Assembly: GCA_965219085.1 (NCBI GenBank)
Contig: OZ244720.1
Coordinates: 1,376,001-1,440,000, forward strand
Source of the DNA: Dehalococcoidia bacterium
Lineage (GTDB): Bacteria > Chloroflexota > Dehalococcoidia > UBA2979
Direction of reading: 5' to 3'
Length of the DNA stretch: 64,000 nt
Part shown: piece after piece, positions 2,344-7,052 of the stretch
Layout of the letters: every line of letters begins with the position of its first letter
Position numbering within the stretch: the stretch's first letter is position 1
Notes under the pieces: model-generated
What the model saw: only the letters and a program-made list of their open reading frames with translations
The model's database searches: none
What the model was told of the DNA's origin: nothing
Made by a program: the position numbers and the translations under genes

Positions 2344-4014
2344 GTGGCGATTGAACACGTGACGGCCCCGGGCGAGGACGTCCTCGCCGACCTGCGCGAA
2401 ATCGAGCTGCTCTTCGAGACGCTCCCGGTGCGCGTCGCCGAAGCGCTCAGCGAGTCGCCCTCGGACGACCTGCTCGAGGTCGTGCTCGACCTCGGCCGCC
2501 AGCCGACGGCGCGCCACGCCGACCGCGAGATCGTGCTCAGCGAGGACGAGGTGACCGCGCAGGACCTCGACCACGTGGTGGCGGCGATCTCGGAGTTCGC
2601 CGACGACAACCGCGCCGGCATCCCGCGCACGCTCCACCGCATCTCCGCGATCCGTAACCGCCGAGGCCGCATCGTGGGGCTCACGTGCCGGGTCGGCCGC
2701 AGCGTGACCGGCTCCGCCGGAGCCATCCGCGACCTGTTCGAGGCGGGGCGCAGCGTCCTGCTCCTGGGCGCGCCGGGCGTCGGCAAGACGACGATGCTGC
2801 GCGAGGCGGCGCGCGTACTCGCCGACGACCTCAACCGGCGCGTGGTCATCGTCGACACGTCGAACGAGATCGGCGGCGACGGCGACATCCCGCACCACGC
2901 CGTGGGCCGTGCCCGCCGCATGCAGGTGCCGCACCCCGAGCTGCAGCACCAGCTCATGATCGAGGCGGTCGAGAACCACATGCCCGAGGTGATCGTGATC
3001 GACGAGATCGGCACTGCCCTCGAGGCGACGGCAGCGCGCACCATCGCCGAGCGCGGCGTGCAGCTGATCGGCACGGCGCACGGCAACACGCTGCACAACC
3101 TCATGCAGAACCCGACGCTCTCCGACCTCATCGGCGGGATCGAGTCGGTCACCCTCGGCGACGAGGAGGCGCGGCGGCGCGGCACGCAGAAAACGGTGCT
3201 CGAACGCCGCGCGCCGCCGACGTTCGAGTCGCTCGTCGAGATCCAGTCGTTCGACCGCGTGGCGGTGCACGAGGACATCGGCGGCACCGTCGACAAGCTG
3301 CTGCGCGGCTTCGACGCCGAGGCCGAGGTGCGCACGATCAGCCCCGGCGGCGAGGTATCGGCAGCCACACGCGTGCCGGTGCCCTCGGGCCCCTCGGAGG
3401 CGGCTGCGGCTCTGCGGGAGCGCGAGTCGATCATGGAACCGCTGCCGCCCGCTCCCGGCGGCCCGCTGCGTCGCATCCTCCCGTTCGGCGTGAGCCGGTC
3501 GCGGCTGGAGCAGGCGATCCACGAGACGCGCTCGGACGCCGAGGTGGTCGATCGCGTCGGCGACGCAGACGCGGTGATGACGCTGCGTCCGTACTACCGG
3601 CGTCGCAGCGGCCCGCTGCGGGAAGCGGCCTCGCGCGGCATCCCCGTCTACGTGCTGCGCAACAACACGATCAGCCAGATGGAGCAGTCGCTGATGCGCA
3701 TGCGCGGCGACGGCAACGAGCCCGACCCCACCACCTCGGCGCTGCGAGAGGCCGAGGACGCCATCGCGGCGGTCAACCTGCGCGGCGAGAGCAGCATCGA
3801 GCTGTCACCGCAGAACGCGTACATCCGCCGGCTCCAGCACGAGCTGGCCTCCCGCCACGGCGCGACCTCGGTCTCGCGCGGGCGCGAGCCGTATCGCCGC
3901 GTGATGCTCACGGCAGGTGACGGCGAGCTGCGCGGTGCCCGTGCGGTGCCCGCCCTCGGCGACGCACTCGAGGCTCTACCAGGAGGCGGGGATACCCCGC
4001 CGGGCTACGAGTAG
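2344..4014 (+). CDS. Ycf45/SpoIIIAA-like AAA ATPase with C-terminal R3H domain
   Basis: Walker A GAPGVGKT, VDTSNEIGG, EAVENHMPEVIVIDEIG; R3H motif RRLQH. Confidence 0.9.
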   Translation: MAIEHVTAPGEDVLADLREIELLFETLPVRVAEALSESPSDDLLEVVLDLGRQPTARHADREIVLSEDEVTAQDLDHVVAAISEFADDNRAGIPRTLHRISAIRNRRGRIVGLTCRVGRSVTGSAGAIRDLFEAGRSVLLLGAPGVGKTTMLREAARVLADDLNRRVVIVDTSNEIGGDGDIPHHAVGRARRMQVPHPELQHQLMIEAVENHMPEVIVIDEIGTALEATAARTIAERGVQLIGTAHGNTLHNLMQNPTLSDLIGGIESVTLGDEEARRRGTQKTVLERRAPPTFESLVEIQSFDRVAVHEDIGGTVDKLLRGFDAEAEVRTISPGGEVSAATRVPVPSGPSEAAAALRERESIMEPLPPAPGGPLRRILPFGVSRSRLEQAIHETRSDAEVVDRVGDADAVMTLRPYYRRRSGPLREAASRGIPVYVLRNNTISQMEQSLMRMRGDGNEPDPTTSALREAEDAIAAVNLRGESSIELSPQNAYIRRLQHELASRHGATSVSRGREPYRRVMLTAGDGELRGARAVPALGDALEALPGGGDTPPGYE

Positions 4015-4019
4015 CGTCG

Positions 4020-4646
4020 GTGGCCGCCTGCGACGGCTGCTTCGTCACCATCGAGGGCGGCGAAGGCGCCGGAAAGTCGACCCTCCTCGACGCGCTCGCC
4101 GAGCGCGCCCGCACCGAGGGTTTCGAGGTGGTGACGTGCCGCGAGCCCGGCGGCACCGCGCTCGGTGAGCGGCTCCGCGCCGCGCTCCTCGGCAGCGACG
4201 GACCCGCGCCCGACGCGCGCGCCGAACTGCTCGTCTTCGCGGCTGCGCGCGCGCAGCTCGTAGCCGAGGTGATCCGCCCCGCCCTGAAGCGCGGCGCGCT
4301 CGTGCTCTGCGACCGCTACGCCGACTCGACGCTCGCGTACCAGCACCACGGCCGCGAGCTGCCTCGTGACACCGTCGACGCCGTGAACGCGGCTGCGACC
4401 GGCGGCCTCACGCCAGACCTCACGTTGCTCCTCGACCTGCCTCCGGCCGAGGGGCTGCGCCGTACGGGCCGCGCCGGCGACTACATGGAGCGCGAGGAGC
4501 TGGCGTTCCACGAGCGTGTGCGCGCGGGCTACGAGGTGCTGGCGCGCACGGAGCCAGAGCGCTGGCGCGTCCTCGATGCGAGTCGGGCGGCTGCTGCGCT
4601 AGCCGACGAGGCGTGGGGTGAGGTCGGGCGCGTGACTCAAAGCTGA
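4020..4646 (+). CDS. tmk: Thymidylate kinase
   Basis: IEGGEGAGKST P-loop, REPGGT, CDRY, PDLTLLLD. Confidence 0.95.
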   Translation: MAACDGCFVTIEGGEGAGKSTLLDALAERARTEGFEVVTCREPGGTALGERLRAALLGSDGPAPDARAELLVFAAARAQLVAEVIRPALKRGALVLCDRYADSTLAYQHHGRELPRDTVDAVNAAATGGLTPDLTLLLDLPPAEGLRRTGRAGDYMEREELAFHERVRAGYEVLARTEPERWRVLDASRAAAALADEAWGEVGRVTQS

Positions 4647-4664
4647 GGCTGCCTCACGGCAGCC
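4647..4664 (+). terminator. GC hairpin immediately after tmk stop
   Basis: GGCTGCC-TCAC-GGCAGCC perfect 7-bp stem; no U-tract. Confidence 0.35.
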
Positions 4665-4836
4665 GCGCGCCCTCTCGCCGAAGCGCACAGGGGGTGTCCC
4701 CGCGATCGTACGCCCCGGAACTCGCCCGACGCCACAGTCGTCCCTCGTCTGCAACAACCGGCGTCGTGTACCGCTGCCGCGAGACTTGTGCGGCACGTCA
4801 CAACCGACCCGCAGCCGCTCCCACGGAGGGTCGTCG

Positions 4837-5355
4837 ATGAGCGAGCCGGAACTGCCGGAGGGGTGGCCGCAGGCGTTCGATGAGGAGGCGCGTGACTACC
4901 TGTACATGGAGGCCAGCACGCGCCTGCGCGAAGTCATCGAATTCGGAAACCAACAACTCGATAAGGGGCTCGCCCTGCTCAGGCTTTCCCTTCTGGTGAT
5001 CGCTGCCGGAGGGATCTTCGGAGACCTGTACCTCGGATTCAGCTTGCTGGGCGTACTCTCAGGACTAGCCGTTGGCGCAGCCCTCGTGGTGGGCGGAATG
5101 GGGCTTCTTCTGCTCTATCCAAGGGACTGGGAAACGGGGGCTAATGTCGACTGGCTCGCCCGCTGGCGAGGGGCGGACACCCGAGCGATGAGAGATTCAG
5201 TGCTCGAAACCATGGTCAGAGGGTTCCGGACCAACCGCAGGATCACTGAACAGCGCGGGAGAATCCTCGTGTTGCTCGTCCCTGCAGTGATGGTTCAGAC
5301 CGTGCTCGTGGTGCTCGTGCAGATCGTGTCGGTACTCGAAGTGTCGGCCAGCTAG
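4837..5355 (+). CDS. Membrane protein (about 3 TM), loosely Pycsar-effector/DUF5706-like topology
   Basis: GGAGG RBS at 4825-4829; hydrophobic segments; pattern 'LDK-hydrophobic...YP...N..I..+-hydrophobic'; codon usage less GC-biased than neighbours. Confidence 0.6.
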   Translation: MSEPELPEGWPQAFDEEARDYLYMEASTRLREVIEFGNQQLDKGLALLRLSLLVIAAGGIFGDLYLGFSLLGVLSGLAVGAALVVGGMGLLLLYPRDWETGANVDWLARWRGADTRAMRDSVLETMVRGFRTNRRITEQRGRILVLLVPAVMVQTVLVVLVQIVSVLEVSAS

Positions 5356-5492
5356 CGGCCCCACTTCTCTATTCGGATGGGGGATCCGGGCGGGCGAGGG
5401 GGCGAAGAAGGCCTCGCGGCACCAGCTGACTCACCCCCGGTCTTGGCTCGCCGCGATGGCCCGACGCAGCTTCCGTGATTCGCCCTACCCAC
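5352..5492 (-). CDS. Microprotein B (46 aa) ending PSSPPRPPGSPIRIEKWGR
   Basis: GAGG then GTG at 5492; C-terminal 19 aa are 16/19 identical to microprotein A, mostly via synonymous codons. Confidence 0.6.
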   Translation of the reverse strand: MGRANHGSCVGPSRRAKTGGESAGAARPSSPPRPPGSPIRIEKWGR

Positions 5493-5535
5493 GGAAGAAC
5501 CTCGCATCCGCGCACGCCAGCACATGTAACCGCAG

Positions 5536-5673
5536 TTAGCGGCCCCACTTCTCGATGGTGCTCGGCGAGCCCGGCGGCCGTGGCGGATCCGACGGCTTGC
5601 CGTCGTGCTTCGGCGTATCGCCAGCCGCGCCACCTTGTGGCGCGGACCCTGCGTCGGCCTTGCCTCCGGCCAT
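5536..5673 (-). CDS. Microprotein A (45 aa) ending PSDPPRPPGSPSTIEKWGR
   Basis: ATG 14 nt downstream of thiolase stop, preceded by GAAGGG; paralog of 5352-5492. Confidence 0.65.
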   Translation of the reverse strand: MAGGKADAGSAPQGGAAGDTPKHDGKPSDPPRPPGSPSTIEKWGR

Positions 5674-5687
5674 CGGTTGGCCCTTCG

Positions 5688-6863
5688 CTAGTTGATGCGC
5701 TCGAAGATCGAGGCGATGCCCTGGCCGCCGCCGATGCACAGCGACACCATCGCGTACCGACCGTCAATGCGCTCGAGCTCGTACATGGCCTTCACCGTGA
5801 GGATCGTGCCGCTCGCGCCCACCGGGTGACCGAGCGCGATCGCGCCGCCGTTCGGGTTGGTCTTCTCCACGGGCAGGTCGAGCGCCGCGCTGCACGCCGC
5901 CGACACCGAGGCGAACGCCTCGTTCAGCTCGATCGTGTCCATGTCGCCCACGGTCAGACCGGCCTTCTCGAGCGCGCTCTGCATCGCCGGGATGGGCCCG
6001 GAGCCCATGATCCGCGGCTCGACGCCCGCCTGCGCGCGAGCGACGAGGCGGAACTTCGGCGTCATGCCCAGCTCGGCGGCCTTGCTCGCCGTGGTCACGA
6101 CCACCGCGGCTGCGCCGTCGTTGATGCCCGAGGAGTTCCCGGCCGTCACCTGGCCGTCCGGCTTGAAGGCCGGGCGCAGCCGCCCGAGCGACTCCATGTC
6201 CGTCCGGCGTGGGTGCTCGTCGGTGTCGAACGTCGCGGTCCTGCGGCCCTGGCGGACCTCCATCGGGAGGATCTGGTCCTTGAAGTACCCCGCCTCGATA
6301 GCCGCGAGCGCGCGCTCCTGGGAGCGCACCGAAACCTCGTCCTGGGTCTCACGCGAGACCTCGAACTGCTCGGCGAGGTTCTCGGCCGTGACGCCCATGT
6401 GACAGGACTCGTACGGGTCCGAGATGAGGTGCAGCAGGTTGTCCTCAAGCGCGTCGTGGCCGAGGCGGTAACCCGCGCGGCCCTTGCGCAGCAGGTAGGG
6501 CTGCATCGTCATGTTCTCGGCGCCGCCGGCGACGATGATGTCGGCGTCGCCGGTCTGCAGCCAGCGGGCGGCGCTGTTGATCGCCTCGAGGCCCGAGCCG
6601 CAGATGCGGTTCACCGTGTAGGCCGCGGTGCCGACCGGCAGGCCGGCCTTCAGCGTGGCGACGCGGGCGATGTAGCCGTCCTCGGCCACCTGCCCGACGC
6701 AACCGAGGATGACCTGGTCGATCTGTTCGCCCTCAAGGCCGGCGCGTTCTACCGACTCGCGGATGACAGCCGCCCCGAGGTCGGAGGCAGGCGTCTGGCT
6801 GAACGAGCCGTTCATCGTGCCGATCGCGGTGCGCACGCCGCTGAGCAGGACAATGTCTTCCAT
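5688..6863 (-). CDS. Acetyl-CoA C-acetyltransferase (thiolase)
   Basis: NRICGSG, NEAFA, GHPVGASG, SLCIGGG catalytic motifs; start taken at MEDIVLL. Confidence 0.95.
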   Translation of the reverse strand: MEDIVLLSGVRTAIGTMNGSFSQTPASDLGAAVIRESVERAGLEGEQIDQVILGCVGQVAEDGYIARVATLKAGLPVGTAAYTVNRICGSGLEAINSAARWLQTGDADIIVAGGAENMTMQPYLLRKGRAGYRLGHDALEDNLLHLISDPYESCHMGVTAENLAEQFEVSRETQDEVSVRSQERALAAIEAGYFKDQILPMEVRQGRRTATFDTDEHPRRTDMESLGRLRPAFKPDGQVTAGNSSGINDGAAAVVVTTASKAAELGMTPKFRLVARAQAGVEPRIMGSGPIPAMQSALEKAGLTVGDMDTIELNEAFASVSAACSAALDLPVEKTNPNGGAIALGHPVGASGTILTVKAMYELERIDGRYAMVSLCIGGGQGIASIFERIN

Positions 6864-7052
6864 CGGAAGCCCCCTACGGTCGGTACTCGCTGGCCGTTCG
6901 GCCACCGCCGGTACCCGTATTCTGTGTATACAAGTGTACGGCGCGTGGCGCTAGCGCGGCATGTGGACATCGCCCCAGACGGGCGAATTTCGAGGAATTT
7001 CCGCATCGTGCGGGCGCCTCGGGACACCCTGCGTGCATGCGGGCGCCTCTCA

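Follow-up and report, generated by a model that had tools for sequence, protein, structure and literature searches.

Small proline-motif ORFs convergent on a PycTM/SpdB3-related membrane protein gene: a probable toxin-and-regulator style module in Dehalococcoidia

Introduction

Two open reading frames (ORFs) of about 45 codons stand one behind the other on the minus strand of a 64,000-nucleotide stretch of a Dehalococcoidia genome (GenBank contig OZ244720.1, positions 1,376,001 to 1,440,000; hereafter the window). They end in almost the same proline-rich peptide and face a gene for a membrane protein with three predicted transmembrane (TM) segments. Are these ORFs, here called A and B, real, and if so, what has their shared ending to do with the membrane gene on the opposite strand? 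An earlier note, made from the letters of the DNA, had taken the small ORFs for a peptide ligand, tag or antitoxin and the membrane protein for an effector. We followed it up with a computational analysis of the whole genome (G000 in our labelling; 3.31 Mb in a single contig, 69.8% GC) and of its relatives. The small ORFs and the membrane gene form a conserved linked pair, which is probably an undescribed toxin-and-regulator style module of Dehalococcoidia. A more specific reading, to which we give an even chance, is that a PycTM/SpdB3-like membrane effector is held in check by a small disordered partner carrying the proline unit.

Results

Selection on the shared tail of the small ORFs

Both ORFs lie exactly where the earlier note had placed them (Table 1), and Shine-Dalgarno-like sequences (GAGG or GAAGGG) were found 7-13 nt 5' of each; the membrane gene has GGAGGG. 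Sixteen of the last 19 residues of A and B are identical, while the N-terminal parts cannot be aligned. Ten of these 16 identical positions use different codons and the stop codons differ (TAA and TAG), again just as described before, and the nucleotide identity of the tails is 40/57. Counted by site, A and B differ at 9.9 of 13.8 synonymous sites and at 5.1 of 37.2 non-synonymous sites. Because of these synonymous differences, a DNA repeat or a repetitive extragenic palindromic (REP)-like element was dropped as the source of the likeness.

The tail corresponds to a unit of 15-17 residues, approximately P-R-P-P-G-x-P-x-T-I-x-K-x-G. In a set of 20 repeat units from 10 genomes of the genus, the entropy at the third codon position was 1.21 bits, against 0.75 and 0.62 bits at positions 1 and 2; within the P-R-P-P-G core it was 1.2-1.8 bits at position 3 and 0-0.5 bits at positions 1 and 2. 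The ratio of non-synonymous to synonymous polymorphism (pN/pS) among six ORF A orthologues was 0.19 for the tail and 0.50 for the N-terminal part, and 0.21 over nine tails of the WGR type. This check of the dN/dS type across homologues, together with the third-position entropy, bears out the earlier preference for selection on the peptide over a recent DNA repeat. Judged by its codons, the tail is a peptide unit under protein-level selection, and the small ORFs are real.

We give next to no credence to the idea that A and B are chance open frames. Spurious ORFs are abundant in high-GC DNA, and neither ORF was called by gene callers in this genome. The codon-position pattern and the pN/pS values contradict this explanation, as does the retention of such ORFs, with ATG starts and Shine-Dalgarno-like sites, at all 17 close loci described below; orthologues have moreover been called in other genomes. 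ORF A has orthologues in G018, G016, G007 and G014 and at locus L081, and ORF B in G014 and G016, where an ATG aligns with the GTG start of ORF B. In the 3.3-Mb genome the motif occurs twice only, in A and in B. Their exact sequences are absent from a collection of 15 billion proteins in which the membrane protein is present, in keeping with their description as unannotated; the same collection contains 17 unit-bearing proteins of 37-91 aa from other genomes, all of them unnamed.

ORF A and ORF B are hydrophilic (maximum 19-residue hydropathy -0.34 and -0.46). The small proteins are probably disordered, with the unit as their sole conserved part. Searches with A and B in Pfam (E<=10) and PADLOC (E<=1) returned no family. 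An 83-aa relative with three units likewise had no family in PADLOC (E<=1) and no match among the sequences of the PDB (E<=10). We also considered that the tail might be the remnant of a larger known protein; this was unsupported, a search for longer proteins (147-2000 aa) with the motif, in itself weak evidence, having returned none at E<=0.01.

Linkage of the small ORFs with the membrane gene

Homologues of the membrane gene (E<1e-40) were found in 10 of the 19 genomes of the genus, this genome included, at 11 loci. At all 11, a convergent small ORF carrying the unit ends within a few tens of bases of the membrane-gene stop. A scan of genome contigs gave 14 membrane-gene loci, five of them new, and the small ORF was present at all 14 (12 by pattern, two by inspection); a scan of metagenome contigs gave a single locus, also with a motif ORF. 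Co-occurrence of the motif with homologues of the membrane gene, a check named beforehand in the earlier note, thus extends to 17 of 17 close loci (11 in the genus, five on genome contigs and one on a metagenome contig).

A small ORF carries one to three units, or else two tandem single-unit ORFs are present, as in the window. The loci fall into two groups. In the syntenic group of the window (G000, G014, G007, G016, G018), one or two single-unit ORFs end in ...IEKWGR, and the module is located between the thymidylate kinase (tmk) and thiolase genes in all five genomes. In the second group (G015, G013, G009, G001, G006 and others), one ORF with one to three units ends in ...KKGIG; an example of its 37-aa-per-two-unit pattern is APRPPGKPSTIRKHG..APRPPGKPSTILREG..NRPPGKPSTIQKKGIG. 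The membrane gene of the second group starts just 3' of a gene for an MmeI-like type IIL restriction-modification (RM) protein of about 976 aa in G015, G001 and G013 (in G015 its ATG is 11 nt past the RM stop), lies about 1.3 kb past a 1024-aa MmeI-like gene in G009, and is found 3' of a gene for a protein with a Type ISP specificity domain (Type_ISP_C) in G006. A second copy in G015 is flanked by dapF on one side and an acyl-CoA dehydrogenase gene on the other. Nearby genes code for transposases, a serine recombinase, a DUF2283/DUF4258 pair and a Uma2 endonuclease. Since at least four different genomic contexts were found, the small ORF and the membrane gene move as a unit. A narrow profile of the membrane family had no match (E<=1e-8) in 400 other genomes across the phylum, and tblastn of the membrane protein against plasmid and phage collections gave no match either.

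As the earlier note had stated, ORF B and the less GC-rich membrane gene share a CTAG in which their stop codons overlap. The membrane gene has 61.7% GC and a GC content at third codon positions (GC3) of 0.75, its neighbours 70-75% GC and a GC3 of 0.88-0.96. With a GC3 of 0.68-0.78, the membrane gene, ORF A and ORF B all lie below the flanking housekeeping genes (0.88-0.96). The composition of the three ORFs is foreign-looking, which we count in favour of the toxin-and-regulator reading.

Convergent 3' ends could also mean that the link lies mainly at the level of RNA, the two transcripts controlling each other as antisense partners and the peptide being separate or minor. In nearly all loci the stops overlap or are less than about 50 nt apart, a 4-nt overlap also occurs in distant relatives, and scans of 4500-5900 for promoter and terminator consensus sequences gave no match, leaving no terminator-like site to separate the two genes. 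An antisense role does not account for a tail that is selected as amino acids with its third positions free, and internal repeats of the unit would make no sense for it. In addition, the tail of ORF A, which lies 180 nt from the membrane gene, is conserved as well as that of ORF B, and Rfam gave no match for 4600-5800 (E<=1). We regard an RNA-level link as improbable. An elongation factor P (EF-P) stalling leader for the membrane gene was rejected on account of its strand and position.

From the seemingly invariant free C-terminus the earlier note had inferred recognition or conjugation, and the wider set of loci speaks against conjugation. The last unit does end 1-2 residues before the stop in every ORF. 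The residues past the final G of the unit, however, differ (R, IG, A or L, and in one form SV replaces the G), and relatives carry internal copies of the unit, which speaks against any function for which the C-terminus must be free. No linked gene encodes a ligase, a deamidase or a protease. A conjugation tag at the C-terminus therefore appears unlikely from the sequences, and a Pup- or ubiquitin-like tag, whether for conjugation or for recognition by a protease, extremely so, even though in protein P0100 a DUF2283 domain is extended at its C-terminus by the unit. P0100 itself (91 aa, on a 777-bp contig) is a side observation. So is the DUF2283 ORF of G015, whose end residues are the same as the C-terminus of the membrane protein, suggesting a recombination joint.

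Conserved repeated units joined by variable linkers also resemble multi-core precursors, and the small ORFs might be precursors of a processed or exported peptide, with the membrane protein as exporter or immunity protein. We consider this very unlikely. Inspection of the neighbours agrees with the earlier note that no modifying enzyme adjoins the ORFs: no modifying enzyme, protease or transporter was found in the window or in the contexts of the relatives examined. The N-terminus shows no leader-like conservation, and the relatives of the membrane protein are pore effectors, not transporters.

Remote homology of the membrane protein

The membrane protein (P0003) has hydrophobic segments at about residues 45-62, 70-93 and 144-167, in keeping with the three or so TM segments first proposed. 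Its 44 N-terminal residues are acidic (4 K+R, 11 D+E) and the loop 94-143 is arginine-rich (11 K+R, 7 D+E); given this distribution of charge, both regions should be cytoplasmic. The AlphaFold2 (AF2) model is all-helical, with helices at 16-61, 70-93 and 115-171. Hydropathy, charge and model all point to three TM helices, the second and third of them separated by a helical cytoplasmic insert, the layout of the 3TM superfamily. A holin was rejected as a candidate, there being no prophage context.

The earlier note had compared the protein loosely, by topology, with the Pycsar/DUF5706 type. The likeness goes beyond topology. A profile of 46 close homologues, run against 1.84 billion representatives, gathered 78 clusters, 50 of which were aligned (alignment A4); the comparison alignment (A5) consisted of 11 true PycTM proteins above the Pfam cut-off from Chloroflexota genomes. 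In hhalign, A4 and A5 matched with a probability of 94.5% (E = 8.4e-8) over 148 collinear columns, with a score of 54.7, compared with 16.5-17 for reversed alignments and 10-11 for five column-shuffled ones. The matched features include Q/D-x-K-A before TM1, P-R after TM2 and N...K/R..L before TM3. PADLOC PycTM models match two remote members, P0172 (6.5e-7, nearly full length) and P0164 (3e-5), and the nearest clusters in a protein language-model Atlas (score 0.94) have PF18967 PycTM in 15-33% of their members. The membrane protein is thus best described as a divergent relative of the PycTM / pJV1-SpdB3 3TM family, outside PF18967 as now defined.

Residues 1-25 (4837-4911), a low-confidence acidic segment, contain an invariant L-P-x-G-W-P and R-D-Y-L-Y-x-E. 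The N-terminal P-x-G-x-P resembles the P-P-G-x-P of the partner, and might reflect mimicry or a docking site. Prediction of a complex of the membrane protein with ORF A scored 0.00 in two runs made without controls, and counts as evidence neither way.

Solitary small ORFs and decayed membrane genes

Of the close homologues of the membrane gene, 16 are intact, and every one of these has a partner small ORF beside it; no intact one was seen without a partner. The reverse does occur: four small ORFs have no intact membrane gene (G009_2, G015:C4:70086, G016:C14 and G013:C27). The one in G009 adjoins the DUF2283 gene of a DUF2283/DUF4258 pair, the one in G015 has membrane-gene remnants alongside, and the one in G013 lies at a locus syntenic with the second G015 copy. 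At the G016 locus (L065, G016:C14:43416-46556), the 3' end of an MmeI-like gene is followed by a 394-aa Schlafen AlbA_2 gene, a convergent orphan ORF of the KKGIG type and a Uma2 endonuclease gene. In G018 (L025, G018:C2:1428099-1431485, ~1388-1905) the membrane gene is split in two frames near codon 40, either through a frameshift or through an error of assembly; the locus has an intact ORF A and no ORF B. This asymmetry is the pattern expected if the membrane protein were harmful and the small protein protective.

Two side observations belong here. At L065 the usual slot of the membrane gene is filled by another defence-type gene (Schlafen AlbA_2), with the small ORF retained. Outside the window, our genome also retains the C-terminal part, frameshifted, of a second membrane gene, nearest to the KKGIG-type group (G000 C1:2068240-2068490; L126, L128); no motif ORF stands alongside, and the fragment looks like what is left of a second, decayed module.

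The small protein could instead act positively on the membrane protein, as a stoichiometric subunit, as an assembly factor, or as an activating ligand that replaces the cyclic nucleotide. The evidence of linkage, geometry and repeats fits this idea equally well. The genome has no cyclase, so another input would be needed, and the many housekeeping contexts and several paralogues per genome are also in its favour. It is the solitary ORFs that make us think it unlikely: orphan small ORFs exist and the reverse is unseen in the close family, which is more easily squared with a neutraliser than with an activator. To encode the activator of a harmful pore right behind a constitutive thiolase gene would, besides, be odd.

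Distant relatives across Dehalococcoidia

With a broad profile, members of the membrane family were found in 67 of 401 sampled Dehalococcoidia genomes; one GTDB family had members in 18 of 25 genomes, with up to six matches per genome. At the distant loci, too, an ORF of 35-60 codons converges on the membrane-gene stop, and the 4-nt overlap of the stops (-3 offset) recurs for a motif-bearing ORF in G402, G493, G434 and G620. The tails found there include ...RRPLPRTIHKNGA, ...GRPLPLKLHKRGL, ...RPPGIPLIVRKRFLF and ...PPPPGSPLRVTKRSV. A pattern written post hoc, after these tails had been seen ([RK]P[PLY][PG], 5-11 residues from the end), matched 10 of 58 ORFs in the expected position (10 of 21 loci) versus 3 of 1279 other ORFs at the same loci (Fisher p = 3e-12). 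Further distant loci have looser variants of the tail. Convergent ORFs with motifs of the LPPPGP or LPPRGE type were found at 16 paralogue loci, where 'PP.G' occurred in 7 of 45 positional ORFs and in 21 of 1025 others (p = 9e-5).

Our genome holds two distant paralogues of the membrane gene outside the window. One (C1:1616111-1616572, L125) has its own convergent small ORF with the motif G-L-P-K-A-K-L-Q-Y-I, and the other (C1:3053259-3053708, L124) looks truncated. At loci L091, L090, L089 and L103 of family f23, the membrane gene ends an operon, either of thiolase-like and ChsH2 OB-fold genes or with an ATP-grasp ligase gene. The small ORF of L091 lies 3' of a CoA-transferase III gene on the converging strand, and at the ATP-grasp loci a major facilitator superfamily (MFS) transporter gene lies beyond the small ORF. 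The module at the f23 loci is located where two operons meet.

Gene neighbourhood and expression

The features of the window are listed in Table 1, with loci of other genomes mentioned above. Upstream of tmk, a 556-aa protein with SpoIIIAA-like AAA, PTPase-like and R3H domains is encoded at 2344-4014 (+), and its synteny is kept in the five genomes.

Table 1. Coordinates of the module, its flanking genes and related features in other genomes
Feature	Coordinates	Strand	Basis or remark
172-aa three-TM membrane protein gene (P0003)	4837-5355	+	translation
Small ORF B, 46 aa, GTG start, TAG stop, tail ...PPRPPGSPIRIEKWGR	5352-5492	-	translation
ORF B proline-motif tail, last 19 codons and stop	5352-5411	-	codon entropy, pN/pS, alignment
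Shared CTAG, overlapping stops of membrane gene and ORF B, 4 nt	5352-5355	both	sequence
Small ORF A, 45 aa, ATG start, TAA stop, tail ...PPRPPGSPSTIEKWGR	5536-5673	-	translation
ORF A proline-motif tail, last 19 codons and stop	5536-5595	-	codon entropy, pN/pS, alignment
Acetyl-CoA acetyltransferase (thiolase) gene, directly upstream of ORF A, same strand	5688-6905	-	ORF list
Thymidylate kinase gene (tmk)	4020-4646	+	flanks module with thiolase gene
MmeI-like type IIL RM genes upstream of the module	L041 5427-8357; L043 8866-11796; L044 8994-11921; L045 4435-7509		
DUF2283-related side observation (P0100, G009, G015 entry)	L029 2436-3162		

ORF A starts 14 nt past the thiolase stop, so that read-through from this housekeeping gene would supply ORF A steadily. 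Four metatranscriptome runs were examined, each containing 5-7% of the sampled words. Their contigs lie mainly on the conserved thiolase gene; 4732-5567, with the membrane gene and ORF B, is uncovered, which proves nothing. Two contigs from different studies (5591-5900 and 5653-5900) cross the thiolase stop into the first 7-27 codons of ORF A. Carry-over of DNA could explain them, and these bridging contigs are a weak hint that goes with the probable co-transcription of ORF A and the thiolase gene.

Discussion

A small protein proposed to restrain a membrane effector

The most likely role of the small proteins, to judge from the genes and their relatives, would be that of an antitoxin or a ligand. 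If translated, they could act as follows. The membrane protein probably forms an oligomer, and the unit would dock on its cytoplasmic side, with the acidic, aromatic N-terminal region and the loop 94-143 as candidate docking sites. The bound partner would keep the membrane protein inactive, in the manner of an antitoxin or gatekeeper, and its loss would free a membrane-damaging effector. We infer inhibition because family members are toxic and because the solitary ORFs show the asymmetry described above. Binding may be multivalent where a chain has several units or where several genes are present, a view based on the one to three units per chain, the tandem genes and the hexamer formed by a family member.

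In the second group, the neighbouring restriction enzymes and mobile elements suggest a role in defence, possibly against phages. Such a role is uncertain, since many loci lie among housekeeping or lipid-metabolism genes and some genomes have several paralogues.

Several results weigh against a PycTM/SpdB3-like effector restrained by its small partner. First, many loci stand among those housekeeping or lipid-metabolism genes and not in defence islands, and some genomes have six or more paralogues. The genes are convergent with overlapping stops, and do not form one operon as in type II toxin-antitoxin pairs. On the side of the membrane protein, HMMER gave no Pfam (E<=10) or PADLOC family for P0003, and PF18967 found no match in the whole genome at E<=10, so that membership by gathering score is lacking. 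Pfam PycTM matched weakly in 2 of 50 remote members (best E 0.018), the narrow family profile (A3) reached a probability of 9.8% in hhalign, and the confidence of the AF2 model is modest (pLDDT, the predicted local distance difference test, 65.5). On the side of the small ORFs, the N-terminal part of ORF B is dissimilar to that of its orthologues. When a profile of the genus unit was run against six-frame ORFs of 23 distant and 11 control loci, only G651 was significant; because this profile misses the distant tails, the case for homologous partners at the distant loci is built on position, size and the post hoc pattern. The strict tail pattern is missing at 11 of the 21 distant loci, a few of them (G027, G607, G610) have no candidate small ORF at all, and related genomes among the distant counts make these counts non-independent.

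A bolder version of the restrained-effector reading is rather unlikely. In it, an undescribed family of two-gene modules, widespread in Dehalococcoidia with up to six or more copies in a genome, would consist of a PycTM/SpdB3-type channel gated by an encoded, disordered polyproline peptide, which with its one to three copies per chain would act as a multivalent plug of the oligomeric pore; the convergent stops would couple control at the RNA and protein levels, and the whole would serve as an addiction or abortive-infection device, sometimes placed behind single-chain restriction enzymes.

If a small protein does restrain the effector, the PycTM/SpdB3 pore fold would also serve beyond cyclic-nucleotide signalling, under the control of a small peptide. 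This would be a new input logic for a known class of membrane effectors, and it would provide a defined motif of 15-17 residues for studying how such pores stay shut. The convergent layout with overlapping stops, kept over large evolutionary distances, is itself unusual. As this example illustrates, functional genes of 35-60 codons, missed by the callers here, can be found by their fixed position beside a partner gene. To our knowledge, genetics is not yet possible in this Dehalococcoidia/Tepidiformaceae lineage of metagenome-assembled genomes.

Comparison with known systems

The earlier note recognised no described system with this architecture, and full-text searches of the literature (supplements excluded) found no paper on a PycTM-like protein paired with a small proline-motif protein. 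Several known systems share parts of it. Precursors of ribosomally synthesised and post-translationally modified peptides (RiPPs) are linked to a modifying enzyme or a protease-transporter, which the contexts examined lack. Compared with Pup or ubiquitin-like tags, the end residues vary here, internal copies exist and no neighbour is ligase-like. In type I toxin-antitoxin systems the small ORF is hydrophobic, whereas A and B are hydrophilic.

SLATT / DUF4231 2TM effectors, known from nucleotide-signalling conflict systems, are likewise small helical membrane effectors found in defence islands, and one is encoded about 5 kb from the module in G006. Their number of TM helices is different, and the weak DUF4231 matches in 2 of 50 remote members (best E 0.38) are not a significant similarity.

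With type II toxin-antitoxin and abortive-infection pairs that have membrane toxins, the module shares two small linked genes that are mobile together between contexts, dispersed paralogues in a genome and tolerance of orphan 'antitoxins'. In type II pairs the antitoxin may occur alone and the toxin not; here four small ORFs are orphans, G018 keeps ORF A beside a broken membrane gene, and all 16 intact membrane genes are paired. The partner is probably disordered, and poorly conserved outside a short, putative binding motif; it differs from type II antitoxins in having neither a DNA-binding domain nor a fold.

SpdB3, encoded on the Streptomyces conjugative plasmids pJV1 and pSVH1, belongs to the same 3TM family and is itself toxic. 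Parts of the published account report that it is highly toxic to E. coli upon induction and that spdB3 is followed by a small gene, spd79 (PMC4447253); parts of a recent preprint name it the founding member of the 3TM family, after Burroughs/Aravind (bioRxiv 10.64898/2026.08.12.744502). Its setting is different: it has a function in plasmid spread in mycelial actinomycetes, and its genes are co-directional within one operon.

The PycTM and PucTM proteins (PF18967; 'pJV1-spdB3 family 3TM') are, in sections of the same preprint, 3TM effectors of Pycsar and Pucsar, EcPucTM forming a hexameric channel lined by TM2 (bioRxiv 10.64898/2026.08.12.744502); part of another source has PycTM thought to disrupt membranes (PMC11224242). 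The membrane protein of the window resembles them in size (~170-200 aa), in the N-terminal helix that runs into TM1, in the TM1-TM2 hairpin, in the P-R after TM2, in the helical cytoplasmic insert and in the C-terminal TM3. It differs in having no Pfam match and, by Pfam, no cyclic-nucleotide-binding domain, and in being paired with a convergent proline-motif ORF, which was present at 0 of 11 true PycTM loci. No cyclase adjoins the module, and PF00211 has no match in the genome (92.7% complete) at E<=0.001. A cyclase adjoined only one of the seven true PycTM loci of Chloroflexota whose neighbours were scanned, so that relatives without a cyclase are not rare. On these features the module does not appear to be a Pycsar or Pucsar system; since there is no cyclase, an encoded peptide would stand in the place that the cyclic nucleotide holds in Pycsar.

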